Below the pieces are notes generated by a model, which was not told where the DNA came from, did no database searches, and saw nothing but the letters and a program-made list of their open reading frames with translations. 64,000 nt of DNA from a virus, in the IMG/VR virus record IMGVR_UViG_3300031977_002862, positions 27,845 to 91,844 of that record, one strand, 5' to 3'. This document shows positions 9,001-57,053 of the stretch, one piece after another; within the stretch, counting starts at the first letter, position 1; the number at the start of each line of letters is the position of its first letter. A program made the position numbers and the translations under genes.

Positions 9001-10407
9001 GTCTACGGTATACTCTCCGAGAATTACGTCGCCTTTATCTGCTCTTCCATAACAAGCAATATCAACAGCATCGGAAGAGAAATTTGCTCCGGCAGAGTTT
9101 CTTACGTCAAAGTCTTGCTCAGAAATACAAACTAAGGGTTGGTCATCCACGTAAACATTCAGAATACTCTGAATCGGACCTTCAGCAAGACTTTCTGCAA
9201 TATAAACTGTATCGGCGTCCGAGGTATTCTCTAAATCTGCAAAGATTGGATTTCCGCCTACACGACGAACTCCGTAAATAACAGGAATATAAGTAGCATT
9301 TAAATTAAACCTTAAATCAACTTCATTCTCTACCTCTACTTCATATTTCTTTAGCTTTTTAGTTCCGAGAAGTTTATTTCTCCATACTTCTTTATACCGT
9401 TCTTCTGTTGTAGTGTATATTGCAATTACGTTTACCGCATTATTTGCATGTTGAAAACCCATATCGCTCGCATATTCAGGTCGAATAGTAGCATCTGGAT
9501 TGGGGTTGCCATTTCTGTTTAGCGCTCTGTGGAAATCATCTGAACCTAATCGCCCTCGAACTTGTTGAAAGTCTCCCCAGTGGCTTCTACATACCCAAGA
9601 AAACTGTGCAATACCGTTTGGGTCCTCTTTATAATTTGCTGTAGCAATAATACCACTGAAAAGAAGAACGGGAGATCCAATAAAAACATCGGGCTCGTCT
9701 TCATAGAAAAAAGCCTTATAGACAGATACCTGACGATTAACAAAGTTTGCAGCTTTTTGAGGAAGAGTAAGTGCAGTTAATTCAGTACTCGCTTGAAGAA
9801 TATCATAACTTTCTCCTGTTTCTGTCCAGGTAGAGAAAGGAAAAGTCTCTTCTTCAACTTTTACAGTTTTGCCCTCGTTTCGAAAAGAATGAATACGAAA
9901 TCTCTGAAGGCTAAAGTCGGCTGTTGGAGAGCTTGCTGTAGTTGCTTTTAAACGAATTAAGTCTCCTTCTACAAAACCAGCATCACTGAAGCTCTCATCC
10001 GCTGTAATTAAGTAATCCCCTCCAGAAGTTGAAAAAGTAAGAGATTGGTTGTAGAGAGCGGCATCAAGAGAATTTGCAGCTATATTAATAGTAAAGTTTG
10101 CTATCTTGTTTTCTGCAGAATCCTGAACAGAGGAGACACTAATTAGTTTATTGGCATGATACGTCTGAGAACCGTTATTCAGTACAGAACCTGACTCTTC
10201 GTAAGTTGATTCATCGTTAAAATTAATCGCATAAGAAGCATCCGTTACATAAGCGTAACGAGTAAATTTTTGGCTGTATAAAACCTCTAGATTTGGTGCA
10301 TTCCATTCTTTTAGTGGGCGCTCAAATTTTACAAGATGTGCATAAGTAAAAGGACGATTCTCGTCAAGATGAAGTGCGAGAGTAGGATTTAAATCTAATT
10401 TTGCCAT
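1..10407 (-). CDS. Giant baseplate hub (T5 pb3-like)/central tail fibre fusion protein, >3,469 aa, C-terminus runs off the window
   Basis: ATG at 10407 abuts the Dit stop (MAKLDLNPTLALHLDENRPF...). The frame was open wherever I checked down to position 1; it is missing from the ORF track, consistent with no stop in the window. It has hub-like motifs (IPVIYGVRRVGG, YMKSKRYGAG), an FN3-like segment and repeated Thr/Ser/Gly/Trp-rich fibre modules. Confidence 0.85.
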   Translation of the reverse strand, partial: MAKLDLNPTLALHLDENRPFTYAHLVKFERPLKEWNAPNLEVLYSQKFTRYAYVTDASYAINFNDESTYEESGSVLNNGSQTYHANKLISVSSVQDSAENKIANFTINIAANSLDAALYNQSLTFSTSGGDYLITADESFSDAGFVEGDLIRLKATTASSPTADFSLQRFRIHSFRNEGKTVKVEEETFPFSTWTETGESYDILQASTELTALTLPQKAANFVNRQVSVYKAFFYEDEPDVFIGSPVLLFSGIIATANYKEDPNGIAQFSWVCRSHWGDFQQVRGRLGSDDFHRALNRNGNPNPDATIRPEYASDMGFQHANNAVNVIAIYTTTEERYKEVWRNKLLGTKKLKKYEVEVENEVDLRFNLNATYIPVIYGVRRVGGNPIFADLENTSDADTVYIAESLAEGPIQSILNVYVDDQPLVCISEQDFDVRNSAGANFSSDAVDIACYGRADKGDVILGEYTVDPSVVVYSGSQTLSVEDYEAIEAEAEVNAQAAQELVSWVFNAPSGVYVQRNEVYNGLVNGIYSSGVPVGQKGLVHDYGINFTSPTDTVIEFKSGLEDQQASSRLSSVANGTKFKLQNDYFGSAPATNYWGANHKLLDTAYTVSKHTITPDQTTVPDIDYVVKGKLVESYNYDGSYGHVGSGENHTNFSLGDTVTIKKSSDDTALASNVQIIDKWFYQDGKGNTNYRFRWDLTAAQEISLQQAKKFYMDDGSNTWTMATYDFTEGNAAFTIETKLQDEISAINSSGTADINATTSTSNVRDAQSSTGSSRASVNTERTIPLANGFDGSNPKSPTYQENPVTSSTTVTVDQTNTVLDDTPTNNISTVTGNASTTTYITIKNQIKLSTTGSPSSVDDAYNGKAVLIRRTDFNGNIIETLKVIKDYDGATRILTLTTDLADGEVPEAGDEVLIYGNEEGRDVRPTTNFGLILLDYMKSKRYGAGLSDDKLNINSFLQAARTCDTRSDITVEIQVDSVGHTLAVGDKFKYEPTGGFKWQGTIKTIEDALSGSPDRFKVTFTDCIGKLTNQFNKVRTRLQDDIIWEAGSSLYRFNTTSGLQTTISTNAVEISSFTLTQVGGDSTSVSVASGSGNVLDYSLYDSDFIQYWKYLGWDSPDQRWVTRHQGNLSIDTSQPVFNVIGVILEHFNGILAFEDGKFTLSVETKRDADGELFWNFQNSSEGWTVNGQASITQEEEYITLDSSGSDPVFRKSNLSFKGSENLIIRARIRRTGGTGWDGAAYYTTDSHGESASFQKDISDPTVLNEWVIASWDMSNLTAGGTDWEDSYITGLRLDLGLSSADDFDIEWISVGSSVRVIEQEDIIGSLSIKDDGLSKAYNSLSASIIDPQNNFNSRNVSFFNSDYLKQDRGVVRSGSFKLEGITNYYNARLAVEQILNRSRFSRQISFTVRPVGLALSPGELIRVKYPRFGWDSGKYFRIQSLTYQTNCLVSVVATEHDDSIYFIDAPKASPFNVPLEVDAVIRRPSAPTNVAATGTGTSNEETNQITVTWDNVAKANGYEIWRSTSNNVNTAVKIADQSSTLERSYIDILLPETRTTFYYWVRAFTRTTVQTTRSSEQRDYYSDYSTEASGTTIGRFNSAFINLYRRTTSGSTPSSPDNQVTYTFSTGALDPAPSNSWTTSIPSSGGAYLWIVQQYVKSLTDTVTIGSGDWVAASLLSTDGADGAEGKTATLTANKYVILFDADGNESPETTITLTGTGTNYTSPIYRFLKDGVEVRAWGSQNTYDIPDFDSGSPDRREPGPNEVHSYTLQVAESDAGSPDGGVYSFDTVSIYGIQEGTVGANGTDALTIILPNDSHVLPVTNTGGGSQITYTGSGTTIRVYEGTTELTYDGVGTSNGTWKVTSTGVNIDPGSPVTDSGTYATIPPHDDMTATNATVSYLIEGKRANGTSFSLTKIQSLAQSVEGEDGSPGETGASVDIIFKRNDGEPDTPSSTPGTPVGWRTNAVDTLLDDGSPYTLWASTGEKAVGATNYDWGSPFQIEADAVAEVYVFRKTSNAGLTGGSYNFTTNTLTAPTNWSTTPPTLANGETSYVGVGLAVGSRTSTSASITWTGSSVYAVRTDGNSNALVYAYKRSAAAPSDNPGPVTVNLSTGKITTTTLDDGWQKEPTGGSDPLYVVAATASGNGSTDDIGSPEWSAPVKLAEDGGDGLNTASVFIYQRTITDTAPSTGSNSGKPEGNTTYTFLGGAISFTTANGWTDDIQSTGTGRYLWVSQATAASTSSTDTIAQGEWSTPSLLAIDGENSLPSASTVLNYDDLDTTGEAAGQGRYALLLNSASPDKGTTSWSDITTPGDIDYILFHRSETNGTDNKDFLLNQVIAGTTIAWYEASDRWVNFLVTGSPIEETTNKIKIPVSLLNFNQEGGTSNLSTASGNPIQFWFSISRKGDTGSTGARGTRTVTGYLFYSVKTSTQPTTLPTSADTNTMNFGTGEFGTILSNWSHNAPTYTGGSPDAEFWYIGFSASESGTYNSGNDTYSGETLTFGGTALKAASFTNLVTFTNLSTSGQTVIDGGNITTGSIESDNYSGTGSPDAFSSAGSSIDLTDGIIQTPFFYSSDEGAGFKGTVSIGGVALTGSGAGNVFNEDIQINSDGTLNYTGSGSGQVDATQITNAVAEAGATAGATWGSNITSQPADADLLNSYNASQGLALLLNKRSDGTANDGEGALVGCDNEGSPQLNTDGFIIWNGSKITVDAVQLNALDPITFATSQTDTKGFIVFDTAKGNPFTVVSTAMDVAFARLNGTQWQYDNNSTWVDFTPADSYVALGWLETRPAGSPDEIAAGGLFGAPIPLSLVASPSATVGATAGVDLKDEGGETIQSTAIVVDRLRDNFEQYADSADFLTYWTSHTAAGEITFSSTSYSGGTSLSIGNNSGNDERWLISKQLIPFDPSRIYRVRVVARQTAGSGAAYFGFGGFAADKTTLVNIDGTNTHSSQHYFAAVGVDIPDAWTLYEGYFSGHGASAGGYNSRTFLDPAVAHPNVRYIAPLILVQYNGAAGTTLVDNIVIEEVQAASAIPGYWRVRRSANSPDDLDAPSNSEVFAVAGRNPIDGDIVLVYDGSSPPKVAEWSYDGSAWSFGNTLRINSSLIVDGSITGRAVASDTTITAGTGATSASLSGVGDYRFYTGSTPTSGTFSVKSDGLVNARNLVLRSSEGTVYFDSNDGGFSFPALTEIAQVSQTKVETYAENHNTAGQYATISTAVDNSNVTVRVRVKAFAGFSAIGYSYNGDSAASTLAKIPTSLTITFDVDDDTSFNGSTIVSIAAGGNGTVSGDSYTRTFTRITSGTPTSTQYKVVQTEDTEIIDLGYEGGEQLFVTLTTYTANVEFGGSSCIDASGYITLDTATDTVTLAAADDTYYFRTALSYAGTGVATENQWSGTTAREIAITDATTDGGFVPGGSGGSQTVGAADITGVAITTNNGITGGATVTSGDASFTLGLGAITPTSVTTPSLIL

Positions 10408-21174: not shown

Positions 21175-23235
21175 TTAATACTTGTGAACAACAACCTGAC
21201 CAGCTGCTTCAAAGATCTGGTCGAAACCACGTCTTTGAGTAGCAACCAATACACGGCGCTGAGCTTCGACTTGATAGTCTTGCTCAACCGTAGCGCCACG
21301 CAATACGGGAACTACGAAGTTGCGGGTATTTACAGCAACACCCCATGCAGCATTTTCAGCTACAGCAGGGAATTCGTCACATACGACTACGGGTGAACCG
21401 TAAACCGTACCCAACTCACCCGTTACACGAGTACCAACTTCACCGAGTTCATTAGACTTCTGGAAGTCAACATCATCAAGCAGATCGTAGTAAGCATCCA
21501 AAGAAATAATGTATACTACATCACCAGGACGACGACCATACTTGCCCATTGCTTGACGCATATCTAAAAGCTTAGCTGCCGTGATAGAAATATCGACCGC
21601 AGGTGAGCCCAAATCAAGAACCATACCAGAGCCTGAAAGATCTTCAGCACGCTTTACAAGACCCTTGTAGCTTGCGGGAGTAGTAATAGAGTCGCCAGAA
21701 GCATTACCCATCAAAAGCGAGTGTTCAATCAAACGAGCGTGTGCACGAATCATTGACTCACGAATCAAAGGCAATACTGGAATAATTGCGTCTTCCTCTA
21801 CTTCATTAGCAATGTAAGACTTTGATACCATCTTTTCAACGGTAAGAATCTTGCTTCCCATTGCAATGCCATCATTAGGAGACGTGCCTGCACGATCTTC
21901 TAAGTTGCCGCCAAAGGGATTTTCTGCACCTGAACCTGCAGTGTTACCTGCAGTAGTAAAGTCTGCATAACCTGCATCGGGCATAGTAGGAATAACCATT
22001 GAAGCGGCAGTCATCTGAATCTTACGGAAAAGAGGATCCAAAACAAGCTCAAGCTCGATGTCACGCTCAATCGCCGTAGAAACAGTAGTTTCAAAAGCTT
22101 CAATAGAAGCGGAAGGAACAGAAACGCCTGAATTTTCATTCACAGCCTTTTCAATTAAAGACTTAGCGAGTTTGTTGTCCCAACCCTTGCGAGAAATAAC
22201 GCCCAACAAATGAGCATCAACTAAATCAGACTCATGAGTCTTGATAAAATCACGCTCTTGGCCACGATCAGCAAAGACACGCTTTGACTCACGAATCTTC
22301 TCAATTTCAGCAGCTTTTTCCGTCAGCTCACCTTGCAGTTCGCCAATAATTTTTTCATAATCAGCATCTTTTTCAGCCATTTTAGCTTCAACGTCAGCCA
22401 TTAATTTTTCTGTACCGCTAGTTACGGCGGTAACAATACGCTGTTCTTCGTCAGCTTTCTGAGCTTCAGCTTCGGCAGCAGCTTTTTGTTCTGCTTCCAT
22501 CTTAGCTTGCTCTTCTGCCTTGCGCTCAGCGTCTTTCATTGCCATTGCAGCCGCAGTCTTCTCGACAGCAGCGGCTACGATAGCGTCGATATCAATATCG
22601 CTCATAGTTTTCTCCTGTGCTTCGACTTGTGATAAGTCTTTTGGCATTGATTCGTCAGAATGTTTTTCAAACTCAACAGTTACTTTATCTTCGGTCTCCC
22701 GAACACTCAGTACATGTTTCTCTTCGGAATCGTTTAATTTGAAAGATTTCTTGAACTCTTCGTACTCATTCTCTGAGTCAAAAGATTTCGCAAGAGAAAA
22801 GGTTGCAGCCTGGTTAGCAGGAACCGTGACTACCGAAACCTCCAGTAATTCTGCATCCTTGATCTTGTATCCATCGGTTTCCGTCATATACTCCGCGTCC
22901 TTGACTCGGAAACCAACAGAAAAAGCTCCAAGAACGCCTTCTTTAATCAATTCGCCTACGTGACCAGCAGATTTAGCAATTTTTGCTTTTAACTGCAGAC
23001 CATTATCATTCGTACCAAGCTGAACTGCCCGGCCAATCGGCTGATTGTAGTCATGATTAAAAAGAATTACAGGGTTATTAAGAAAGTTGTCAAGCCCGCC
23101 TTTAGTCCAGGCCTCTGTCTCAATAACATCTCCAACTCGGTCAGTACCATTAGTACTGGCCATTCCAGCAATGTGAAGGTCATCGCCCTCATCAAATGCT
23201 TTGAAAGTGGAGCCAATATGAAAAATTTTATTCAC
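21175..23235 (-). CDS. Prohead protease - scaffold - major capsid protein fusion (HK97 fold)
   Basis: N-terminal HK97-type protease (NPVILFNHD, FSVGF, EVSVVTVPAN), then a coiled-coil delta domain and a capsid domain. In-frame internal AGGAG-ATG at 22605. Confidence 0.92.
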   Translation of the reverse strand: MNKIFHIGSTFKAFDEGDDLHIAGMASTNGTDRVGDVIETEAWTKGGLDNFLNNPVILFNHDYNQPIGRAVQLGTNDNGLQLKAKIAKSAGHVGELIKEGVLGAFSVGFRVKDAEYMTETDGYKIKDAELLEVSVVTVPANQAATFSLAKSFDSENEYEEFKKSFKLNDSEEKHVLSVRETEDKVTVEFEKHSDESMPKDLSQVEAQEKTMSDIDIDAIVAAAVEKTAAAMAMKDAERKAEEQAKMEAEQKAAAEAEAQKADEEQRIVTAVTSGTEKLMADVEAKMAEKDADYEKIIGELQGELTEKAAEIEKIRESKRVFADRGQERDFIKTHESDLVDAHLLGVISRKGWDNKLAKSLIEKAVNENSGVSVPSASIEAFETTVSTAIERDIELELVLDPLFRKIQMTAASMVIPTMPDAGYADFTTAGNTAGSGAENPFGGNLEDRAGTSPNDGIAMGSKILTVEKMVSKSYIANEVEEDAIIPVLPLIRESMIRAHARLIEHSLLMGNASGDSITTPASYKGLVKRAEDLSGSGMVLDLGSPAVDISITAAKLLDMRQAMGKYGRRPGDVVYIISLDAYYDLLDDVDFQKSNELGEVGTRVTGELGTVYGSPVVVCDEFPAVAENAAWGVAVNTRNFVVPVLRGATVEQDYQVEAQRRVLVATQRRGFDQIFEAAGQVVVHKY

Positions 23236-23605: not shown

Positions 23606-24802
23606 TTACTGATCTGACCCATCATCTGCTGGCCTACCTCCTTCTGTTGGATTGGCTGCTGATCCTGCAATATTTGCAGGTACTCGAAGCTCGCCTGCCC
23701 CAAACTGTTCATCATAATTTAATGCCTCTCTTGCTTCATTCGGAGTAATAATTCCTGTATTTACAAGAGTGGCGTAATATGCGGCAGCATCTCGAAGTTC
23801 TGGCTGAAGTGCGGGAATATTACTCACGTCTTCAGTAATTTCATATCCGAAAAATCTCTCTAAGCCATAGTTAATCTTTCGGATAATCGGTAAAACCGTT
23901 TCTAAATAGTAAAGTCGATGATTTGGGCGAATGTTTGCATTATTCCCAGAATCAAGCATAATAGGTGGAACACCTAACACCTTTAAGATTTCTTTTTCGG
24001 CAGTTTCAATAGACTGCTCAAAATCAAGTTCTCTAAAGTTGACATTTGAAAGTGCGTCTAAGTCCATTCCTCCATCTAAGATCAGAGGTCTTCTTCCCCC
24101 ACCATCTGGACGATAACGAGTCATCCAGGATTGAATCATTCTTTCTTTGTTCTTCTCACTTATGACCGCCGGAGACTTAAGAACCAACCCAGGAACTGCA
24201 CCGTTCTTAAAGAAATTATCTTGAAATTCTCGCATACGAGTAAGCTGAGACATAATGCGACGAGCCGCTCTTAGTCTGCTGGTTCCTCTATAAATGCTAT
24301 GAAAGGAGTTTTCTTTTACGTGGATAATTTCTGAGGGAGAGTAGTCAATACTCTTCTGGAAAGTAAACTTTTGTATATAAGTTTTCTTATCTGGTTCAAT
24401 GTCTGTGTAAACAGCAGGTAAATGGTAGAGATGCGCCCCATCAAAGTAGACAAAAATATTTCCATCAAGTATATAATCGATAATGAGGTTTCGCTTAAAG
24501 GTGGAAATATCTTGAAAAGGATTCGGCTCTTTATTCAGTAGCAACTGAACTCTTGAACGTCTTACTCCTTTTGCAACCGAATTCAGTCCCTGAATTGGTT
24601 CGCCTACCCGAAGGGGGATCTCAGCCGTGTCGTCAACAATCATATTAACGGCACGATTCACAACTTCTAAATATTCATAGTATGCTGTATAATTAGTCGG
24701 AAGCTCACGAGAACCTATAGGCCCTGCACCTTCGAGACTAACTACAATCTCTTCCTGGGCTGGGTTGAGCTTTTCTTTCTGCCAGAAATTATACCATGCC
24801 AT
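23606..24802 (-). CDS. Portal protein (HK97 family, T5 pb7-like)
   Basis: PNPFQ, FFKNGAVPG, LGVPP, ITPNEARE motifs. Confidence 0.95.
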   Translation of the reverse strand: MAWYNFWQKEKLNPAQEEIVVSLEGAGPIGSRELPTNYTAYYEYLEVVNRAVNMIVDDTAEIPLRVGEPIQGLNSVAKGVRRSRVQLLLNKEPNPFQDISTFKRNLIIDYILDGNIFVYFDGAHLYHLPAVYTDIEPDKKTYIQKFTFQKSIDYSPSEIIHVKENSFHSIYRGTSRLRAARRIMSQLTRMREFQDNFFKNGAVPGLVLKSPAVISEKNKERMIQSWMTRYRPDGGGRRPLILDGGMDLDALSNVNFRELDFEQSIETAEKEILKVLGVPPIMLDSGNNANIRPNHRLYYLETVLPIIRKINYGLERFFGYEITEDVSNIPALQPELRDAAAYYATLVNTGIITPNEAREALNYDEQFGAGELRVPANIAGSAANPTEGGRPADDGSDQ

Positions 24803-25172
24803 GTTTTTCTCGTTGAATCTCTACCCAGCGCATTTGCTTCATTGCTGTGTGAAGCGGCGGATTGCGCCCATAAATACTATGCAGCTTTAGATGGTGCTCA
24901 TGGCACAAAGTAACTGTATCGTTATACAGTTCTTGCCAATTATCCTCGATAAACTCGTCTCTCCAGATTGTAATGTATTCATCTGTGTAATGTTCTGGAC
25001 GAAGTTTTTTCTTCTCTTCTATCCACTTATGATACAATGGAGCCAGTGTATAGAAATGATGAAAGTCGAGTCTTACCTTTGCATCGCAAATCTCACAAGC
25101 ATCGCCTTTTTCATATTTCGCTTTGGCTTTGTCTCTGATATACTTGATCGGGTCGCGTTTTAGCTGTGCCAT
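24789..25172 (-). CDS. HNH-type nicking endonuclease (T5-like)
   Basis: CEIC...LDFHHF...TLCHEHH..LH..YG; adjacent to the portal gene as in T5. Confidence 0.8.
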   Translation of the reverse strand: MAQLKRDPIKYIRDKAKAKYEKGDACEICDAKVRLDFHHFYTLAPLYHKWIEEKKKLRPEHYTDEYITIWRDEFIEDNWQELYNDTVTLCHEHHLKLHSIYGRNPPLHTAMKQMRWVEIQREKHGMV

Positions 25173-30571: not shown

Positions 30572-30864
30572 TTGATTGTTCCTTGTCTGGGCTTTGAAAT
30601 CTTTGTTGATTTCGGTGCATATTATACAGGTCGTGTGTTGCTTTTTGATAAAGATTTTGTTAAGATTCGGTTAAGATTAGCACCATTTGCGGTTCAAAAA
30701 TACCCCAAGTTGCGCATGAAGGTGGGCGCGAGCGCGCGCTTATAACTTTTGTCTATAAACCGCCCCCTCTATATAACAAATTAATCTAAAAAAATATTTG
30801 CAAAGGGCTTGTGCTCTCGGTCGCGATATGCGAGAATCATCCTATCAATTAAGGATGAAACGAA

Positions 30865-31074: not shown

Positions 31075-31239
31075 ATGGCTTTTCTTCTGAAATTTTTGCT
31101 AGAGGCTTGGGCGATCATCGCGCTAATAATTGGCATGATTACTGCTTTCCTCGGCGCTCCGCTTTGGGCCGCCTTCCCAATCGTTTGCGCGATCGCTTGC
31201 GCTTATTCAGCAAGCCTCATTGATGAAATTCTGGAATAG
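31075..31239 (+). CDS. 54-aa membrane protein
   Basis: Translated by hand: MAFLLKFLLEAWAIIALIIGMITAFLGAPLWAAFPIVCAIACAYSASLIDEILE; RBS AAGGGGGT. Confidence 0.6.
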   Translation: MAFLLKFLLEAWAIIALIIGMITAFLGAPLWAAFPIVCAIACAYSASLIDEILE

Positions 31240-31318
31240 GATATATTCCGGATTTTCTCTGGACTTTTTCAAAAACCGCAGGCATACTATGCCTGTTCAA
31301 TCAACTAAAGGAGACGCT

Positions 31319-31621
31319 ATGTCTAACTACTCAACTTCAATGGTAACTGCTCTTCAATCTCAATCTTGGGATTATGAGAGCGCCTCGGCCTTCGCTGCCG
31401 AGCACAATCTGTCGGTTCGTTCTGTCATCTCCAAGATTAAAAATCTTGACCTTGACTATACGCCAAAGCCTAAGACGGTTTCCACCGCTGGCCCTCGCGT
31501 TGTCAAAGCTGACATTGTGGACGCCATCACCAAGGCGCTAGACGCTGACCCCGACTCGCTCGCGGGTCTGGCTAAAGCTGACGCTCGCGCACTCAACGCG
31601 CTATTGATGGCGATTAGCTAA
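31319..31621 (+). CDS. T5 A2-like DNA-binding protein (copy 1)
   Basis: AAGGAG RBS. SVRSVISK...PK...RVVKADIV..I...LAGLAKA resembles the T5 A2 pattern (SVRSKL...IRKAHYV...LASLESA) as I recall it. Confidence 0.75.
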   Translation: MSNYSTSMVTALQSQSWDYESASAFAAEHNLSVRSVISKIKNLDLDYTPKPKTVSTAGPRVVKADIVDAITKALDADPDSLAGLAKADARALNALLMAIS

Positions 31622-31821
31622 TGCTTATCAATGCCTCCGCTTGGGTTGGGACCGCTCTCATGGGGGCGGCTCCCTTCCTCATCGACTCGGCCACTGGTAA
31701 GATCATGGCAATTTTAGGGCTCGCGCTTTTATGCTTGCAAGCCTACGATAAAAAATGCTACAATCTGATCATATTAAACTTGATAGGAATTTTCGGTTAT
31801 GCTTCACACTTTTATCTTTGA
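31621..31821 (+). CDS. Small multi-TM membrane protein
   Basis: Three hydrophobic segments; coupled to the A2 stop. Confidence 0.65.
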   Translation: MLINASAWVGTALMGAAPFLIDSATGKIMAILGLALLCLQAYDKKCYNLIILNLIGIFGYASHFYL

Positions 31822-32263
31822 TCTCGACGGCACGACCGTCAACTCTGATCACCGACTCGGCGAGACTCTCGCAGACTGGCGCAGGATGAATACTCCCGCC
31901 AACATTATGCGAGATACTCCGCTCCCGTTGGCCGAGCAAATGCGCCAGGCCATCCGCGATGGTTTGGACGTTGTGATCTTGACCTCGCGTGTTATGGGTC
32001 ACGCTGACCGCGTTTGGCTACATGCTCACGGCATGGTTGCCCCTGTCATTATGTCGCGGCATATCAGCGACAATCGTCCGGCTGGTGAATACAAGCTTGC
32101 TAAACTTCACGAGCTTGCCGTTGATCGTCGCGTCTCATTCCGCGATCTGGCCGCCTCGGTCGTCATGTGGGATGATGACTCGGATGTCCAACAAACTCTC
32201 GCAAATGCTGGCGTTCGCGTCATCGATCCTGTAAACTTCAATCAATTAGCAGAGGCTATCTAA
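31799..32263 (+). CDS. HAD-superfamily phosphatase
   Basis: FDLDGT motif I, LTSR motif II, K motif III, WDDD motif IV. Confidence 0.85.
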   Translation: MLHTFIFDLDGTTVNSDHRLGETLADWRRMNTPANIMRDTPLPLAEQMRQAIRDGLDVVILTSRVMGHADRVWLHAHGMVAPVIMSRHISDNRPAGEYKLAKLHELAVDRRVSFRDLAASVVMWDDDSDVQQTLANAGVRVIDPVNFNQLAEAI

Positions 32264-32931
32264 TGAAACAGATTATCCTAACCCTTGACACTGAAACCGC
32301 AGACCTAACCGGTGATGTCTATGATGTTGGCTTTGTGGTTCATACGCGAGACGGTGAGATTCTCGAAACTTACAATGCGCTCGTTGAAGAGATCTTCACG
32401 GATGCTAAGAAAATGATGGGCGCATTCTATGCTTCAAAACTTTTCACCCACTACAGCAAAATGCTTTCCGAGCAATCTATCGGCTTTGCATCTTGGGGTG
32501 ATATCGTTGCCAACATTCAACGCGCTATCGCGGAGCATGGCGTTACCACTATCGCCGCCTACAATCTCGGCTTTGACCGTCGTGTCATGCGAAACACTCA
32601 CCGAGCGCTCGGCTTTTCTGGCTCCATTTGTCCGGCTGGCTTGCAACAGCTCGACATCTGGCAATTTGCCTGCGAAACCAAATTGAGCCAAGCCACCTAC
32701 AAAAAACTCGCTCGTGAGGCTGGCTGGGTTTCTGCCGCTGGCAATATCAAGACGGGCGCAGAATACGCATATCGATTTTGCTCTGGCGATTTTGGATTTA
32801 TCGAAGATCATACCGCCTTGAGCGATGCTTTAATCGAGGTTCAGATTCTCGCGGCTTGCTTTGCAACCAAGAAAAAAATTCCGTATAATATCGTGAACGG
32901 CGCACCTTGGAGGATTGTAAACAATGGCTAA
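32263..32931 (+). CDS. DEDDh 3'-5' exonuclease
   Basis: LDTET, AYNLGFD, HTALSDA. Confidence 0.88.
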   Translation: MKQIILTLDTETADLTGDVYDVGFVVHTRDGEILETYNALVEEIFTDAKKMMGAFYASKLFTHYSKMLSEQSIGFASWGDIVANIQRAIAEHGVTTIAAYNLGFDRRVMRNTHRALGFSGSICPAGLQQLDIWQFACETKLSQATYKKLAREAGWVSAAGNIKTGAEYAYRFCSGDFGFIEDHTALSDALIEVQILAACFATKKKIPYNIVNGAPWRIVNNG

Positions 32932-33034: not shown

Positions 33035-33643
33035 ATGCTCAAGGAACAACAAGCAAGACTCAATCGGATTTTAGACTCTCGGGGGCATGGCGGGATTGCC
33101 GTTGTGCTTGAAGGTCGCGACACTGCCGGAAAATCTAGCACGATTCGCGAGGTTACGCATTATCTGAATCCGGCAAAATACAGCGTGCATCTCTCGCGCA
33201 AGCCTAGCAAATCCACCATGAAACACTGGCTCGGGTATTGGTCAAAACGAATGCCCGCAACGAATCAAATCGTATTTTACGATCGAAGCTGGTATTCTCG
33301 CGCAATGGTTCAACGCATGAACGGCTGGTGCTCAGAAACTCAATATGAGAATTTTCTGGCAAAGCATAAATCATGGGAAGAAAAGCAGGGCTTGCGTTTT
33401 ATTAAATTCTGGCTTTCGATTTCAGAAGAGGAACAACGCCGCCGAATTGAACGCCGCAAAGCTTCGCCTCTCACCTATTGGAAATTTTCCGAGAATGACG
33501 AAAATGCGCTCTCGTATTATGACCGCATGACGCTCTTAAAGGAGCGCGTCATTGATTCCGATTGGCACGTGATCGACTACAACGACAAGCGCCAGGGCAT
33601 CCTTGACCTCACCACCCGCCTCTGTGACCTGCTAGAATCCTAG
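33035..33643 (+). CDS. ppk2: Polyphosphate kinase 2
   Basis: EGRDTAGKS Walker A, YDRSWY, KFWLSISEEEQ..R...P...WKFS motifs. Confidence 0.92.
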   Translation: MLKEQQARLNRILDSRGHGGIAVVLEGRDTAGKSSTIREVTHYLNPAKYSVHLSRKPSKSTMKHWLGYWSKRMPATNQIVFYDRSWYSRAMVQRMNGWCSETQYENFLAKHKSWEEKQGLRFIKFWLSISEEEQRRRIERRKASPLTYWKFSENDENALSYYDRMTLLKERVIDSDWHVIDYNDKRQGILDLTTRLCDLLES

Positions 33644-33658
33644 CAGGTTTCATGCCAA
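33641..33658 (-). promoter_or_regulatory. sigma54 (-24/-12) motif
   Basis: TTGGCATGAAACCTGCTA on the minus strand. Confidence 0.55.
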
Positions 33659-33664
33659 CTTTTT

Positions 33665-33680
33665 TGTTTCACGTGAAACA
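33665..33680. promoter_or_regulatory. parS centromere-like site
   Basis: Perfect 16-bp palindrome TGTTTCACGTGAAACA matching the bacterial chromosomal parS consensus; intergenic. Confidence 0.85.
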
Positions 33681-33694
33681 TGAGAAAAACGCGC

Positions 33695-33707
33695 TAACCC
33701 CTTGATT
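33695..33707 (-). promoter_or_regulatory. IHF binding consensus
   Basis: AATCAAGGGGTTA matches WATCAANNNNTTR. Confidence 0.55.
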
Positions 33708-33742
33708 TTATTGGATTTTTGGCGCGCGGGCGCCAGTGCGAA

Positions 33743-33875
33743 AGTGAAGTTCTGAACCTATGTGGCGCGCGTAAAATTTCGAGAGTGCAGTTTCGAGGCT
33801 ATAGTCTCTTATAGCAAGAACCGTGCCAAGTTTTCGGCGCGGCCGCGCCTATTATAGTGCAGTTCCGAACCTATG
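33743..33875 (+). repeat. Three imperfect ~21-bp direct repeats
   Basis: AGTGAAGTTCTGAACCTATGT (33743), AGTGCAGTTTCGAGGCTATAGT (33784), AGTGCAGTTCCGAACCTATGT (33856), interleaved with GGCGCG-rich palindromes. Confidence 0.75.
33812..33829 (-). promoter_or_regulatory. sigma54 (-24/-12) motif, consensus match
   Basis: TTGGCACGGTTCTTGCTA matches TGGCACG-N4-TTGCW. Confidence 0.7.
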
Positions 33876-33879
33876 TCAA
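33851..33879 (-). promoter_or_regulatory. Leftward sigma70 promoter with no downstream ORF
   Basis: TTGACA-17-TATAAT on the minus strand. Confidence 0.8.
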
Positions 33880-33935
33880 GAGTTTTTTACACTTGATGTG
33901 AAAAAAATTATTTCACCTAGTCTCCTAAAAAATTG

Positions 33936-33964
33936 TTGACACGGCTTGCTCCATCCCATATAAT
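33936..33964 (+). promoter_or_regulatory. sigma70 promoter for A2-like copy 2
   Basis: TTGACA-17-TATAAT. Confidence 0.85.
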
Positions 33965-34009: not shown

Positions 34010-34321
34010 ATGTCTGCATACACTGATAAAATGGTAAACGAACTCAAAGCTGTTGACTCTTGGAACTACGACCTTGCCTCCGACTATGCCGCTCTGCACG
34101 GCCTGTCAGTACGCTCTGTCATCTCCAAGCTCAAGAACTTAGACATTGACTACACGCCCAAGCCTGTTGTCAAAGCAGCAAGCCCACGCATTCGCAAGGC
34201 TGACATTGTTGTCCAGATTGCCGAAGCATTAGGCATGGCTGACAATGCCGAAGCCCTGGCGGGATTGGAGAAAGCTGACGCACGCTCGCTCACTGCAGTG
34301 CTCAAGCAATTGCCCTGCTAA
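34010..34321 (+). CDS. T5 A2-like DNA-binding protein (copy 2)
   Basis: Clear paralogue of 31319-31621 (LSVRSVISKLKNLDIDYTPKP...KADIV...LAGLEKADAR). Confidence 0.8.
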   Translation: MSAYTDKMVNELKAVDSWNYDLASDYAALHGLSVRSVISKLKNLDIDYTPKPVVKAASPRIRKADIVVQIAEALGMADNAEALAGLEKADARSLTAVLKQLPC

Positions 34322-34388: not shown

Positions 34389-34417
34389 ATTTTAGTGCCA
34401 AAGTGATGGCATGTCAA
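34389..34417 (-). promoter_or_regulatory. Second leftward sigma70 promoter
   Basis: TTGACA-17-TAAAAT; its flanks duplicate those of the 33851 promoter. Confidence 0.7.
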
Positions 34418-51451: not shown

Positions 51452-52087
51452 ATGACAGTAAAAATACCTTTAAAATATCGAAACAAGCCGGCTATTCTTT
51501 TCGCTACAGGACCGACAATGCTAGAAGCCGTTCCTATAGTAGAAGAGTATAAGGATGATTACATTATCTTTGGGTGTAATGATTCTTATAAAGTAATTCC
51601 TTGGTTAGACGAACACTACGCTTGCGATGATCGTTGGTGGAGATTTAATGGGCCTGATTTTCGTAAAAGGTGTCCTAATCTGTCTTCTTGGACTCAATCG
51701 AAAGAAGGGGCAAAAAGTTGGAACATTCAATTAGTTCAAGGATACCATAGAGACCTTATGAGTATAGATTCTTCCTATATTCACTTCGGGTCTAATTCTG
51801 GGTTTCAAATGCTAAATATAGCTTTTTTAATGGGCTGTTCCAAGTTTATTTTGGTTGGCTATGATATGCAGCATATAAATAAAAAAACGCATTTTTTTGG
51901 TGACCATCCAGGAGGCATGTCCAACAGCAGTCCCTATGGAAAATTTATAAATTATTATTCTAAAATACAGCCTGAGATTAGAGAATTGATTGTTAATTGT
52001 AGTCCTAATTCTGCTTTAACGGTTTTTAGAAAAAATACATTGAGAGAAGAGCTTGAGAATAATAAGTCTTTCAAAACAAATTCTTAA
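51452..52087 (+). CDS. Maf/DUF115-like putative glycosyltransferase
   Basis: ATGPT, GCND, NSGFQMLNIA..MG...ILVGYDM, HFF. Confidence 0.65.
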   Translation: MTVKIPLKYRNKPAILFATGPTMLEAVPIVEEYKDDYIIFGCNDSYKVIPWLDEHYACDDRWWRFNGPDFRKRCPNLSSWTQSKEGAKSWNIQLVQGYHRDLMSIDSSYIHFGSNSGFQMLNIAFLMGCSKFILVGYDMQHINKKTHFFGDHPGGMSNSSPYGKFINYYSKIQPEIRELIVNCSPNSALTVFRKNTLREELENNKSFKTNS

Positions 52088-52715
52088 TAAAGAGCTCGAT
52101 CAAGTAGTGGCCTCGAAGGTATATAGAAGCTTAAATAATCCTGTAACAAATTTAATTTCTGGGTTGTATCTTCGAAAAAAAGCGGGAAGAGTTTTTCTAG
52201 GGTTAAAAGAGCATTCAGAAGAAAAAATAGAAGAATTCTTTAGTTTAATAAAAGATCAAAAGTATTTACTGTCTTTACCGGAGAACTCTCTTGGAAGACA
52301 TATATACAACCATGGAGGCTATGAAACTTTCAAAGAGTTTTATACAAATAAAGAAGTGTATTTCTATACTGGAAAAAATAAAAAACTTCTTTTTTATATT
52401 AATAATTTTATGAATCATGTAAAGATTTCACACGATTATTGGCATATAATGTTCGGCTACGGAAGAAGTTATGTTGATGAAGGGTGTATACAGGCCATAA
52501 CCTTTAGTGCTTTAAAATCTTTTGGGCCTCTATATATTTGTTTACTAATATGTATATCAGATATGCTCGAAACCAAAAATTTAGTTGGAACTAAAAGAAT
52601 ATATAAAGCATATAAAAGGGCTCAGAAAACTAAAAGGGAATTCTTTTTTAAAAAGTTCGATAACTTATTGGAAGAAGATATTAATGAAATAAGGAAAAGG
52701 TACGGCATAGTATGA
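52053..52715 (+). CDS. Coq4-like protein
   Basis: L.LPENSLG..., HDYWH..FGY....DEG. Confidence 0.6.
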   Translation: MRIISLSKQILNKELDQVVASKVYRSLNNPVTNLISGLYLRKKAGRVFLGLKEHSEEKIEEFFSLIKDQKYLLSLPENSLGRHIYNHGGYETFKEFYTNKEVYFYTGKNKKLLFYINNFMNHVKISHDYWHIMFGYGRSYVDEGCIQAITFSALKSFGPLYICLLICISDMLETKNLVGTKRIYKAYKRAQKTKREFFFKKFDNLLEEDINEIRKRYGIV

Positions 52716-53350
52716 TAAAAATATTTGTAGGTACTTCTGCAAATGGAGAAGATGATATTGCGGAAAAAACTCTTAAATATTCTTTAGAAAAGCATTCTTC
52801 AGAAGAATTAGAAATTGTTTTTATGCGAAACAGAAAAGACGGCTTTATGGGTCTTTTTGACTCTTCTGGCTGGGCTACGCCTTTTACTAATCTTCGTTGG
52901 GTAATTCCAGAGTATTGCAATTTTTCTGGAAGAGCTATTTATATGGATGTAGATCAATTAAACTTACGAGATATTTCCGAACTCTACAATATAGATTTAC
53001 AAGATAAACCCTTTGCTTCTAGGGATAATCGTCTTTGTGTGATGGTAATGGACTGCGAAAAAATGCAGACGGAGTTGAAATCTGCACAACATATAAAACA
53101 AACTCCTACATACGGTAGAGAAATTTATTGGAACATAGTTAAAAAAAGTAAACATTTTGATCCTAGATGGAATTGTTTAGATGGAGAAGATAGAGAGATA
53201 AATGATATCTGGCATCTTCATTTCACCACTATGCCTACACAGCCTTGGAAACCTTCTTGGTATAGAGGAGCTCACAGAGAACACCCAAGACAGGATTTAG
53301 TTAATTTATGGAAGCAGTATAGTTTGGAGGCTATAAATGGCACTAATTAG
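52712..53350 (+). CDS. GT-A (GT8-like) glycosyltransferase
   Basis: IFVG, TPF...RW.IP, AIYMDVD, WNCLD, LHFT. Confidence 0.8.
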   Translation: MIKIFVGTSANGEDDIAEKTLKYSLEKHSSEELEIVFMRNRKDGFMGLFDSSGWATPFTNLRWVIPEYCNFSGRAIYMDVDQLNLRDISELYNIDLQDKPFASRDNRLCVMVMDCEKMQTELKSAQHIKQTPTYGREIYWNIVKKSKHFDPRWNCLDGEDREINDIWHLHFTTMPTQPWKPSWYRGAHREHPRQDLVNLWKQYSLEAINGTN

Positions 53351-53897
53351 TGAAAAATACTCTAACTTATTGAAAGAATACCATCAAGAAAGAGAAAGTT
53401 TTGGAGAGTCAAAGAATCCTGAGTCCTATTATTTATTATACTACATAAAGAAAATGTATTTAAATTCTTTTTTAGATTATGGGTGTGGGAAAGGCGGTTT
53501 AATTAAAGAATTAAAAGATTTATATCCTACTATGGAAGTAGAAGGCTATGATCCTGGAACGGTAGAATTTGAAAAACACCCAGAAAATCATTATGATTTT
53601 GTAAGTAGTATAGATGTACTAGAACACATAGAGCCAGAACATATAGACGAAGTGCTACTAGATATAAAAAATCTTTCTTTAAACTATATATACCTTCTAA
53701 TATGTCACTCACCAGCAAAAAAGAAATTACCAGATGGAAGAAATGCTCATATACTGCAAAAACCTTTGGATTGGTGGTTAAAGAAGTTAGAATTAACTAT
53801 GCCAGACTTCGGATTTGCGGAGGTTACACAAATCGTTTCAGATAGGGTAGATCTGCCACGTAAGATAGATAGTAGAATTTTACTAAAAAGAAAATGA
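53337..53897 (+). CDS. Class I SAM methyltransferase
   Basis: LDYGCGKG, GYDP, DVLEHIEP. Confidence 0.85.
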   Translation: MALISEKYSNLLKEYHQERESFGESKNPESYYLLYYIKKMYLNSFLDYGCGKGGLIKELKDLYPTMEVEGYDPGTVEFEKHPENHYDFVSSIDVLEHIEPEHIDEVLLDIKNLSLNYIYLLICHSPAKKKLPDGRNAHILQKPLDWWLKKLELTMPDFGFAEVTQIVSDRVDLPRKIDSRILLKRK

Positions 53898-54499
53898 ATA
53901 TAGCTATTATTGGACACGGCCCTAGTATGCTTTTAGAAAAAAGGGCAAGTTTTATAGATTCTTTTGATTTTGTTGTCAGACAAAAGAAAAGAGGAATAGA
54001 ACTAATGCAAGAGCACCCTGAATTTTTCGGAAACAAAACAAATGCAGTGTGCGGGTCTGTAGGCCAGTATAGAGCAATAAACTACCCTAATACTGAAAAG
54101 TGGGTATTCATAGATTCACGATATGAGAATGCAAATGTCTCTAATCTTGTAGGTGCCCGGGTAGATAAAGATCTTTGCAACAAGTGGAACCAAAAATTTA
54201 GAGAGAAAAGAACAGATTATTCTCCTCCAGACGAAAGGATCGTGTCCTCTAAAAGTTCTGATTCTTTTGGCCATAGGCATTTATCTTCAGGTTTTCACAC
54301 AATACTTTATGCGTGTAAACTGTTAAGTCCGAAAAGTATAACACTGTTTGGTTTTGACAGCCTACAAAACGGAGATTTTACTTGGTCATTAACAAGGGGC
54401 GAACAGTGGAAGCAGTACCCAGATCATAGATGGGACATAGAGTTTCTTATGATAGAAGAAGTAAAAAAACATTTCGGAATTAATATGGAGTTTAAATAA
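53894..54499 (+). CDS. Sialyltransferase-like (GT29/GT42-type fold) protein
   Basis: IIGHGPS...IDSFDFVVR, LSSGF, LFGFD, H.W..E. Confidence 0.65.
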   Translation: MNIAIIGHGPSMLLEKRASFIDSFDFVVRQKKRGIELMQEHPEFFGNKTNAVCGSVGQYRAINYPNTEKWVFIDSRYENANVSNLVGARVDKDLCNKWNQKFREKRTDYSPPDERIVSSKSSDSFGHRHLSSGFHTILYACKLLSPKSITLFGFDSLQNGDFTWSLTRGEQWKQYPDHRWDIEFLMIEEVKKHFGINMEFK

Positions 54500-55047
54500 T
54501 GAATAGATATACAGAGCTTACTACTTTGGTAAGAAATGAGAAACCAAAACATATTCTAGAGATAGGTACCTGGAACGGGAACAGGGCTATAGCTTTATGC
54601 AATATCAATAATTCTAGCTATACTGGATTTGATTTATTTGAGGAAGCTACGAAAGAAACTGATGAAGTAGAAAAAAATGTTAAAAAACATAACTCAAGAG
54701 ATTCAGTGCTGCGAAAAATAAGAGGTAATGGAATTGTTTGTGAATTAATACAAGGTAATACAAATATAACCTTACCCGAATACGTAAAAATTAATTCACC
54801 TAAGTTTGATTTTGCTTTTATAGATGGAGGGCACTCTGTAGAGACTATTGCCAATGACTGGAAGTATGTTAAAGAATTAATGCTACCCAATAGTTTAGTA
54901 GTTTTTGACGATTATTATGAAAATTGCTCAGATTTACATATTTGGGGAGCTAATAAGGTACTTGAAGGTTTGGACTATTCACTAGGAGAGTGTAGAGATC
55001 CTGTGGTTACAGGAGAATTTGTAAGGCTCGCTACAGTAAGGGTATGA
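54499..55047 (+). CDS. Class I SAM methyltransferase (Methyltransf_24-like)
   Basis: LEIGTWNG, GFDLF, FIDGGHS, VFDDY. Confidence 0.85.
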   Translation: MNRYTELTTLVRNEKPKHILEIGTWNGNRAIALCNINNSSYTGFDLFEEATKETDEVEKNVKKHNSRDSVLRKIRGNGIVCELIQGNTNITLPEYVKINSPKFDFAFIDGGHSVETIANDWKYVKELMLPNSLVVFDDYYENCSDLHIWGANKVLEGLDYSLGECRDPVVTGEFVRLATVRV

Positions 55048-55700
55048 GAGTTTTTATCGGGTATGACTCAAGGGAAGATATAGCATATAGAGTTGCTAAA
55101 GCTTCTATCTTAAAATATAACTCTTCTTTAGAGGTTCTGCCTATTATAAGAAAAGATTTAATAGAAGAAGGTATTTACTCTGTGGAAGACTCTTTAGGTT
55201 CTACAGAGTTCACAATTACAAGATTTCTAACTCCCTACTTGAGTAATTATACTGGAATATCTGTCTTTATGGATTGTGACGTATTAGTACAAACAGATTT
55301 GGAAGACATTTTAGTAGAGTGTGACTTATCATTACCAGTAAATTGTGTAAAACATGAGTACACACCTAAAACGGACTTAAAGATGGACAATAGAACACAG
55401 TATGTTTATCCTAGAAAAAATTGGTCTTCTGTTATGGTTTTTAATTGCGAGCATAAATTAATTAGGAAAAACCTTACTGTTGAGTCTGTGAATTCTTCTA
55501 CTCCAAAATATTTACATAGAATGGGATGGGCTGAAGAAAATATAGGAGAGCTACACCATACGTGGAACTATTTAGTGGGATATTATAGTGATATTGAAAA
55601 ACCTAATATACTTCACTACACTGATGGGGGACCTTGGTTTGAGAACTATAAAAACTGTGAATTTTCGGAAAACTGGAATAGTGAGTTAAAAAATGTATAA
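55044..55700 (+). CDS. GT-A (GT8-like) glycosyltransferase
   Basis: FIGYDSRE, STEFT.TRF, FMDCD, YPRKNWSS, HYTDGGPW. Confidence 0.85.
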   Translation: MRVFIGYDSREDIAYRVAKASILKYNSSLEVLPIIRKDLIEEGIYSVEDSLGSTEFTITRFLTPYLSNYTGISVFMDCDVLVQTDLEDILVECDLSLPVNCVKHEYTPKTDLKMDNRTQYVYPRKNWSSVMVFNCEHKLIRKNLTVESVNSSTPKYLHRMGWAEENIGELHHTWNYLVGYYSDIEKPNILHYTDGGPWFENYKNCEFSENWNSELKNV

Positions 55701-56415
55701 TGTATATACCACTTTTGCCCCAAAAGATTATCTTCTCTACGGAAAAAACTGTATAGAGACTTTTATAGAATATTGGCCAGAAGATATTAAACTGTACGTT
55801 TACTATGAAGGAAAGCCTGAATTAGAGAATGATAGGGTAGTTTGGTTGGATTTTAATACGGAATGTTCTGACCAATTAGTGTTTGCTGAATATGCAAAAA
55901 ACTATCCACAAGATAATTTTTATAAAGCGGCTACTAGATTCTCCTATAAAGCTTATACTATAATCAATCACCTAGAAAAAAGACTAAATAGATACAGCAT
56001 TTGGCTAGATGGCGATTGCATAGCAACTAAAAAAATACCTTTAGATTGGTTAAGTAAAGTTAAACGTGATAATTGTTGTGTTTCTACATTATTACGAAAA
56101 ACAAGAGCTGCAGAATCTGGATTTATCTTAGTAGATAATGAACATGAAGATTTTAATTTATTTTTACAAAAATACTCAGAATTTTATAGGGAGTATAAAC
56201 TTTTCAAGCTTCCTGAATGGCATGATGGGTATATACTAAGCCACGTAATAGGTGAGTTTAAGATAAAAACTTTTAACCTTACCCCTCCTAACAATACTAG
56301 ACAAGCAGAATACCATCCTTTTGTTCGGGGAATATTAGGAAAATATTTGGACCATTTAAAAGGCCCAAGAAAAAATATCGGTTTTTCTAAAGAAAGACAG
56401 GATGTTTGGAATTGA
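55693..56415 (+). CDS. Nucleotide-diphospho-sugar transferase
   Basis: RFSYK, IWLDGD (DxD), ESGF, EWHD, HLKG. Confidence 0.75.
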   Translation: MYNVYTTFAPKDYLLYGKNCIETFIEYWPEDIKLYVYYEGKPELENDRVVWLDFNTECSDQLVFAEYAKNYPQDNFYKAATRFSYKAYTIINHLEKRLNRYSIWLDGDCIATKKIPLDWLSKVKRDNCCVSTLLRKTRAAESGFILVDNEHEDFNLFLQKYSEFYREYKLFKLPEWHDGYILSHVIGEFKIKTFNLTPPNNTRQAEYHPFVRGILGKYLDHLKGPRKNIGFSKERQDVWN

Positions 56416-57053
56416 AAAATATAAAAGGTTGGTTTTTTCCGGATAACGAGAAACATTTTATAAAATTTGTGGACTTTTTTCCGGAAACTAGCTACCAACA
56501 AAATATCTTTTCTCACGCCTTATTTAAAACTAAAAACAAATCTTGTTTTGTTGATATTGGAGCTAATTTAGGGTTACACACAGTTAGAGCAGCTTCTTGC
56601 TTTGATTATGTTCATTCTTTTGAGCCTGCGAGAGTTAATTACGAAGCTTTATCCAAAAATTCCCAAAATTTTACAAATATAAAAACCTATAATGTAGGCT
56701 TGGGAGGGAAGGAGTCCCTAGGTTATTTAAAAATACCAAAAAATTCTAATAATCTGGGGAGTTTTTCTTTTAAAGATTTTAATAACATGAAAGAACACGA
56801 ACTCTCTATAGAGGAAGTAACTATTAAATCTTTAGATTCTTATAAATTGAGTCCAGATTTAATTAAAATAGACGCACAGGGGTTCGAGGTGCAAATACTG
56901 CAAGGGTCGATAGATACTATACGCAGACATTCTCCAGTTATACTGATTGAAATGCTGAAGTATAACTCAAAGAAGATCGAAAAATTACTTACCGAATATT
57001 CGTATGTACTAGATACAAAAATTAAAAAAGATGGAGTATGGATTAAAAAATGA
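56406..57053 (+). CDS. FkbM-family methyltransferase
   Basis: VDIGANLG, SFEP, IKIDAQGFE. Confidence 0.88.
   Translation: MELKNIKGWFFPDNEKHFIKFVDFFPETSYQQNIFSHALFKTKNKSCFVDIGANLGLHTVRAASCFDYVHSFEPARVNYEALSKNSQNFTNIKTYNVGLGGKESLGYLKIPKNSNNLGSFSFKDFNNMKEHELSIEEVTIKSLDSYKLSPDLIKIDAQGFEVQILQGSIDTIRRHSPVILIEMLKYNSKKIEKLLTEYSYVLDTKIKKDGVWIKK

Follow-up and report, generated by a model that had tools for sequence, protein, structure and literature searches.

An uncultured virus contig from the sea (IMG/VR record IMGVR_UViG_3300031977_002862; 91,844 bp, completeness rated 91%) carries a perfect copy of parS, the ParB-binding palindrome of bacterial chromosomes, in the non-coding DNA behind a polyphosphate kinase 2 (PPK2) gene. 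We analyzed bases 27845-91844 of this contig, a stretch of 64,000 nucleotides referred to below as the window, with coordinates counted from its first base. Four seawater runs contain its DNA in full, and marine and estuarine runs of ten further studies contain parts of it. The contig apparently belongs to a virulent, distant relative of phage T5. The parS is very probably a genuine site that is under selection for binding the ParB protein of the host, and the best explanation overall is probably that it acts as a host ParB loading site, maintained by selection on a virulent T5-like phage that encodes no ParB. The main interest of the finding lies in the apparent exchange of parS for DnaA boxes at the position where T5 stops the injection of its DNA.

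The original prediction made from this stretch claimed a perfect parS in non-coding DNA, and the claim stands: the exact 16-mer is present once in the window and once in the whole contig. The consensus reportedly described by Lin and Grossman in 1998 is TGTTNCACGTGAAACA, with position 5 degenerate. The chance frequency, an estimate that the original prediction had proposed, comes to approximately 1.5e-5 exact matches in 64 kb. Forty-two related viral loci were retrieved by means of the neighbouring PPK2 gene (62-95% protein identity), and a GC palindrome next to parS (GC palindrome 1 in Table 1) was used as an independent anchor for locating the site in them. Of 34 related loci, 33 have a site with at most one mismatch from TGTTYCACGTGRAACA located 26-105 bp left of the palindrome; if distinct loci alone are counted, the figure is 22 of 23. 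Mean pairwise identity among the relatives was 0.91 in parS vs. 0.28-0.42 in the 32-bp flanks on each side, which is near random. Apart from three single exceptions, substitutions within parS (27 sites from 26 distinct loci) were confined to positions 1, 5, and 12, and the resulting variants (TTTC/GAAA, TTCC/GGAA, and hybrids) are all natural forms of parS. This conservation pattern is that of ParB specificity, with a constant core and variation at positions 5/12.

Domain searches of the entire contig gave no match to ParB_N, HTH_ParB, or integrase. No ParA was found in the contig either; the sole match to the ParA/CbiA P-loop ATPase family was below threshold and covered the P-loop only, within a 445-aa open reading frame (ORF). 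ParB_N and HTH_ParB were likewise absent from two related contigs, G001 and G002, rated 98% and 100% complete. These results bear out the earlier observation that the phage looks lytic and has neither parA nor parB, and the search for parB in relatives proposed at the time was negative. With no cognate parB or parA on the replicon, the parS is an orphan. Since it is real, conserved, and orphan, recruitment of host ParB, as originally proposed, is the natural reading, and we infer that ParB would bind there. Orphan sites of this kind are probably not restricted to the present family. The perfect 16-mer was found in at least 119 viral contigs (IMG/VR loci L044-L162; GC content 0.27-0.72), whereas a reversed-palindrome control of equal composition was found in two; this excess speaks for a frequent occurrence of orphan parS in viral DNA. 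A ParB-like gene was located within the fetched flank in 1 of the 119 parS-bearing contigs listed, and several of the sites among the matches listed were intergenic, in contigs of 55-122 kb.

The idea had been presented as new, which it is not: the use of a host parS by a virulent phage is already known, with phi29 as the closest precedent. Host-type parS sites of the Bacillus phages phi29 and Nf are bound by host Spo0J, with spore entrapment (PMC2731898). The virulent phi29 has five such sites, which it uses via Spo0J, and its early promoters bear Spo0A boxes as well; this equipment allows the phage a second course of infection, with its genome silenced and taken along into the spore (PMC2731898). 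A literature search for orphan chromosomal parS in lytic phages found no paper, and the phi29 precedent was reached by another route. Both phi29 and the phage studied here are lytic, lack a ParB of their own, and bear the parS of the host chromosome. Each also has sites for further host DNA-binding proteins close to early promoters, namely Spo0A boxes in phi29 and, in the present phage, sigma54-type and Fur-like boxes. They differ in that there is one parS here and five in phi29, in that a T5-like siphovirus is compared with a protein-primed podovirus, and in that the host here, seemingly a marine member of the Pseudomonadota, forms no spore. The present site is moreover fixed at the edge of what appears to be the first-entering block, and its function is suggested by analogy. 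Compared with the chromosomal ParABS centromeres of Bacillus subtilis, Caulobacter, and Pseudomonas aeruginosa, the 16-bp palindrome is identical and the same variation is permitted at positions 5/12, but here the site is single, stands on a virus, and has no parAB nearby. The phi29 trick of borrowing the centromere protein of the host would extend to Gram-negative marine phages. If orphan parS is indeed common in viral DNA, host ParB would be an under-appreciated phage-host interface in the sea, possibly linked to slow or stalled infections.

The non-coding module that contains parS (Table 1) appears to form the right-hand few hundred bp of a terminal, first-entering block of approximately 3.2 kb. 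In T5 the left terminal repeat (1-10219) carries dmp, A1, and A2, and the injection-stop zone is annotated at 9140-10149, starting with a terminator and containing the major nick at GCGC (NC_005859). Homologues of A2 and Dmp precede the module in the window, and T5-like left-end and right-end signatures flank the block; the module therefore sits at the position of the T5 stop zone, in agreement with the original prediction. No homologue of A1 was seen. The left-end signature GTCT-N3-AACCGCCCCC is the counterpart of nt 29-48 of T5 (GTCTGCTAACCGCCACCCCC) and is kept in at least 16 related loci. A wider boundary signature at 30680-30770 and in the relatives, consisting of AGTTGTACGTGAAGG, a GC-rich stretch, and GTCT-N3-AACCGCCCCC, resembles the first 48 nt of T5. 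A T5-equivalent left end would lie near 30724, and parS is located 2.8-3.3 kb right of the left-end signature in every locus with both. Counterparts of the right end of the T5 repeat (GGGGGCAAAA-N4-TTGACAA) were found 420-550 bp right of parS in six distinct relatives. In the window this counterpart is the rightward promoter at 33936, for which reason the block probably ends at about 33936..33964. Contig ends were rejected as a guide to the termini. They scatter on both sides of PPK2, and those of G001 overlap inside an early gene. A 4,911-bp exact “direct terminal repeat” in G002, the contig of locus L026, spans terminase and portal and therefore looks like an assembly wrap-around rather than a true repeat.

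Table 1. Features of the parS module, its neighbourhood, and the wider window.
Feature	Position	Strand	Remarks
T5-like nicking endonuclease homologue	24789..25172	-	Adjoins large terminase gene; 45% identity, E 3e-29, to Vibrio phage 234P1 protein so annotated
Putative T5-type left genome end	30723..30767	+	Signature GTCT-N3-AACCGCCCCC at 30751-30767
A2-like small DNA-binding protein, copy a	31220..31621	+	phrog_1725; first recognisable gene of pre-early-like operon
HAD phosphatase, homologue of T5 Dmp (pre-early 5'-deoxynucleotidase)	31799..32263	+	37% identity, E 1e-12; phrog_415, Pfam HAD
Exonuclease-like protein	32263..32931	+	phrog_20187, phrog_192
PPK2	33035..33643	+	Pfam PPK2, E 3e-42; last gene before module
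Hairpin, 8-bp stem, 4-nt loop	33628..33647	+	Across PPK2 stop codon; read from sequence, not listed by consensus scan
Sigma54-type element 1 (TGGCATG-N4-CTGCT)	33642..33657	-	Near match; 7 bp left of parS, pointing left
parS palindrome, perfect, chromosomal type	33665..33680		16/16 match to TGTTNCACGTGAAACA
IHF-consensus match	33695..33707	-	Pattern WATCAANNNNTTR
GC palindrome 1 + AGT (GGCGCG-N-GGCGCC-AGT)	33721..33737		Palindrome proper 33721-33734
Three 40-nt repeat units	33724..33876	+	Starts 33724, 33765, 33837; repeat analysis
Sigma54-type element 2 (TGGCACG-N4-TTGCT)	33813..33828	-	Full consensus; pointing left
GC palindrome 2	33836..33849		Sequence scan
Perfect sigma70 promoter (TTGACA-N17-TATAAT)	33851..33879	-	Fires leftward over module, antisense into PPK2
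Perfect sigma70 promoter for first early gene	33936..33964	+	Mirrors 33851-33879
A2-like protein, copy b	34010..34321	+	First gene beyond module; 32% identity to T5 A2, E 6e-5
Permuted (two-piece) tmRNA, phage-encoded	43928-44271	-	Rfam tmRNA_permuted 94.9 bits, alpha_tmRNA 60.3 bits; tag peptide ANDEVYDLAIAA

With the module placed at the right edge of the first-entering block, host ParB loading would proceed as follows. Once the first DNA has entered, ParB dimers bound to cytidine triphosphate (ParB-CTP) would nucleate at parS and close as clamps, building a small partition complex on the phage DNA. By analogy with phi29, the phage chromosome may in this way be hitched to the ParABS/SMC machinery of the host, and the phage DNA would be held, positioned, or passed to daughter cells during slow or stalled infection of nutrient-limited marine hosts. 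As the effect of ParB, a phi29-like tethering or segregation is the likeliest of the proposals, though a tentative one. It and the hold and insulation effects considered below are not mutually exclusive.

Several points weigh against host ParB loading as the explanation. The scan of relatives advocated in the original prediction succeeded in nearly all anchored loci but failed in two close relatives, L004 and L021, whose fetched DNA contained no parS. L004 has lost both parS and the sigma54-type element. The site is therefore dispensable. No parS was found in three T5-like Vibrio phages, whose hosts presumably possess ParABS. Segregation would be of little benefit to a T5-like phage that degrades the DNA of its host. 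The constant position beside the GC palindrome and the promoters suggests a local role and favours it over an independent centromere. Because ParB clamps slide off where DNA ends are free, any function on linear, just-injected DNA is harder to account for. Finally, the permuted alpha-type transfer-messenger RNA (tmRNA) of the phage hints at an alphaproteobacterial host, in conflict with the gammaproteobacterial affinity of its PPK2.

The two sigma54 motifs named in the original prediction are both present, on the minus strand. A relaxed sigma54 pattern yielded three matches in the window vs. 0.21 expected, and three or more matches were obtained in 0 of 100 shuffles. The third match (31131) falls within the ORF of a small membrane protein and was set aside. 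In 371 kb of relatives, GTTGGCAYG-N4-TTGC occurred 20 times vs. 0 for the reversed control and approximately 1.4 expected; all 20 matches were non-coding and located at the two edges of the block, those at the right edge pointing left. Counterparts of element 1 lie 24 bp left of parS in L011, L012, and L016, and element 2 recurs as the same element in the same place in L008 and L009. Seven relatives have a plus-strand element 19-59 bp inside the left-end signature, pointing into the pre-early operon. Both window elements are antisense into PPK2, with no ORF downstream. No Sigma54_activat domain was found in the phage, which thus encodes no enhancer-binding activator; an activator from the host is possible. 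By these counts the elements are a genuine, recurrent feature of this phage family, and they are probably true binding sites of the sigma54 holoenzyme, whether it fires there or merely holds closed complexes. In relative L021 (7150-7445), which has no parS, five sigma54-type elements in both orientations lie within 300 bp and are followed by three copies of an AT-rich repeat.

For about sixty years it has been an open question how T5 halts the transfer of its genome once the first 8% has entered. T5-like phages have eight conserved DnaA boxes in the stop zone, and docking of host DnaA has been proposed to halt the transfer (Davison 2020, 10.1101/866236). The present module resembles the injection stop signal of T5 and other Demerecviridae (Repeat Region 3) in being a non-coding, repeat- and palindrome-rich zone right of a block with dmp and A2 homologues. 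Further likenesses are a terminator at the start of the zone, strong promoters where it ends on the right, comparable end signatures to either side, and palindromes containing GCGC; the major nick of T5 is at GCGC, and here only the palindromes and the nicking-endonuclease homologue are read from sequence. The differences are that parS is found here and DnaA boxes in T5, that the block measures approximately 3.2 kb vs. 10 kb in T5, that no A1 homologue accompanies it, and that sigma54-type elements are present. The homology is positional, and the terminal repeat and two-step transfer are presumed from the layout of the sequence. No DnaA boxes were found in the module; related loci had 0-1 near matches each, with one near match in 26 loci.

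Against this background the module could be an injection hold or anchor, the kind of role put forward in the original prediction, in which ParB at parS, sigma54 closed complexes, and other host proteins stop or hold the first-step DNA, in replacement of the DnaA boxes of T5. We consider this unlikely. It agrees with the position of the module after the Dmp and A2 homologues and between T5-like end signatures, with the DnaA boxes that T5-like phages keep there and the proposed role of DnaA docking (10.1101/866236), and with parS at this place in a family without DnaA boxes, and the L021 arrangement hints that sites for host factors are interchangeable. The DnaA model is, however, itself a proposal for T5, two-step transfer is presumed for a family in which no A1 homologue was seen, and L004 manages without parS and without the sigma54 element. 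A cytoplasmic protein bound behind the entry point, moreover, has no obvious means of stopping DNA that is still in the tail. A wider version, which we rate somewhat lower still, would make host origin-region DNA-binding proteins the general brake or anchor of T5-type two-step transfer, the protein being swapped by lineage (DnaA on paired DnaA boxes in enteric T5-like phages, ParB-CTP clamps on parS in this marine family), with inward-facing sigma54 closed complexes helping at both edges of a miniature 3.2-kb terminal repeat. As part of this version ParB bridging could pair the genome ends for circularisation, because parS would lie in both terminal repeats. A sister lineage with the stop-zone architecture but with parS for DnaA boxes amounts to a natural swap experiment, and the swap points to host chromosome-binding proteins as the shared ingredient.

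The order of the module is fixed in the relatives: operon terminator, parS, a spacer of 26-105 bp, GC palindrome + AGT, leftward promoters, and rightward promoters. No ORF lies downstream of the leftward sigma70 promoter in the window, and relatives have 1-4 leftward consensus sigma70 promoters without an ORF. The fold of the leftward transcript is only modestly better than that of shuffled sequences (z = -2.1), and an Rfam search of the module gave no match. Another leftward sigma70 promoter, near-consensus in sequence (34389-34417, minus strand), is situated just behind the terminator of the A2-like gene and would transcribe antisense to that gene. In a further reading, parS might function as a local transcription insulator or silencer from which ParB spreads a few hundred bp. 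ParB could block or repress the strong divergent promoters adjoining parS, or it could keep the pre-early operon apart from antisense and early transcription; the outcome would be a temporal switch that depends on the host. In all cases the site lies directly beyond the operon terminator, and consensus promoters directed toward it and away from it stand at a distance of 170-300 bp. ParB of P. aeruginosa represses promoters adjoining parS3 and parS4 (PMC5521831), and phi29 pairs parS with host-regulator boxes at its early promoters (PMC2731898). We nevertheless regard such a role as doubtful, given that silencing by chromosomal ParB is usually weak, that the spacing between parS and promoters varies among relatives, and that a phage repressor would be simpler.

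The flanking genes offer another candidate. The two A2-like proteins are paralogues (58% identity) that bracket the module, and a palindrome suits any dimeric regulator, so that parS could be the operator of a phage-encoded regulator with an accidental resemblance to the centromere site. This is very improbable. A private operator would coincide with the parS half-site in all 8 positions with a probability of approximately 1.5e-5, parS stays unchanged in relatives whose A2-like proteins have diverged to 30-45% identity, and no parS was found in T5, which does have A2. These three points together make host ParB the expected binder. Most of the changes that the site tolerates, moreover, affect positions at which the parS consensus is degenerate. 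A neutral passenger, either a scrap of a host origin region or an assembly chimera, to which the host-like metabolic gene PPK2 next door might point, is effectively refuted by recovery in multiple runs, by more than 30 related contigs that carry the stretch with phage genes on both sides, by palindrome-anchored conservation of parS amid flanks that have drifted to random, and by L026, in which parS stays with the module and not with PPK2.

The remaining elements of the module were characterized in the window and in the related loci. From the PPK2 stop (33643) to the following gene (34010) there is a gap of 366 bp, which holds no ORF of 40 aa or more except for overlaps at the right edge. The hairpin across the PPK2 stop codon is likely to be the operon terminator; it overlaps sigma54-type element 1, and relatives have stronger terminators at the same place. 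The GC palindromes of the original prediction were both recovered and are the sole two of their kind in the genome. GC palindrome 1 with its AGT is the most conserved element of the module, always within the above spacing from parS in the 34 related loci, and GCGC density is highest there; it is a candidate nick or recognition site. The three repeats of approximately 21 bp in the original prediction turned out to be 40-nt units derived from a promoter and do not form a class of their own. In units 1 and 2 the promoter copy has decayed, and unit 3 is the minus-strand sigma70 promoter itself, with a 12/12 consensus match. The predicted site for integration host factor (IHF) exists as a sequence match, but its pattern WATCAANNNNTTR is not above chance (4 in the window vs. 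5.6 expected). Only a few relatives have the full IHF pattern, and only its core CTTGAYTT is semi-conserved. A Fur-box-like palindrome, TGAGAAYNATTCTCA, was observed 22-28 bp left of parS in L018, L019, L023, L006, and L003, and also in L026 at approximately 355. Its core is identical to a predicted Caulobacter Fur site (PMC2724300).

Gene order around the module is kept in relatives and runs from an A2-like gene through HAD phosphatase, exonuclease, and usually PPK2 to the module, often followed by a second A2-like gene and a SprT-like peptidase. Adjacency of PPK2 and parS is not universal. In L026 PPK2 is 4 kb away and parS is still inside the module, which therefore persists without an adjoining PPK2; PPK2 was accordingly rejected as functional partner of parS. 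Pfam gave no match for ten small neighbouring proteins.

The wider window contains a siphovirus structural module with T5-type tail proteins on the minus strand, and the large terminase is 51% identical to its counterparts in T5-like Demerecviridae of Vibrio and Klebsiella. These structural and terminase homologues and that of the nicking endonuclease, along with the missing integrase, ParA, ParB_N, and HTH_ParB, are the grounds for considering the contig a distant and apparently virulent relative of T5. A DNA search of the module region against isolated phages gave no match. The closest cellular PPK2 proteins are from marine gammaproteobacteria (Porticoccaceae, Cellvibrionales; approximately 40% identity); two matches at 65% identity were dropped as a host clue, as they came from small, probably mis-binned phage contigs. 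Three of five candidate marine gammaproteobacterial genomes have a single parB approximately 12 kb from a single perfect GTTCCACGTGGAAC, a parS variant that is also present in many of the related phages.

Three observations concern other parts of the window. A low-GC island (0.32-0.35) at 51452-57053 on the plus strand comprises ten genes of approximately 200 aa; among their products are an MptE/Maf-like protein, a family-8 glycosyltransferase, and an FkbM methyltransferase, which makes a glycosylation cassette likely. A giant ORF of 4,794 aa (1-10407, minus strand), which runs on upstream in the contig and is located downstream of the tape-measure and distal-tail genes, is probably a tail tip or fibre protein. 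A 686-aa ORF (21175-23235, minus strand) matches both the head-maturation protease and the major head protein families and is thus suggestive of a fusion between protease and capsid genes.

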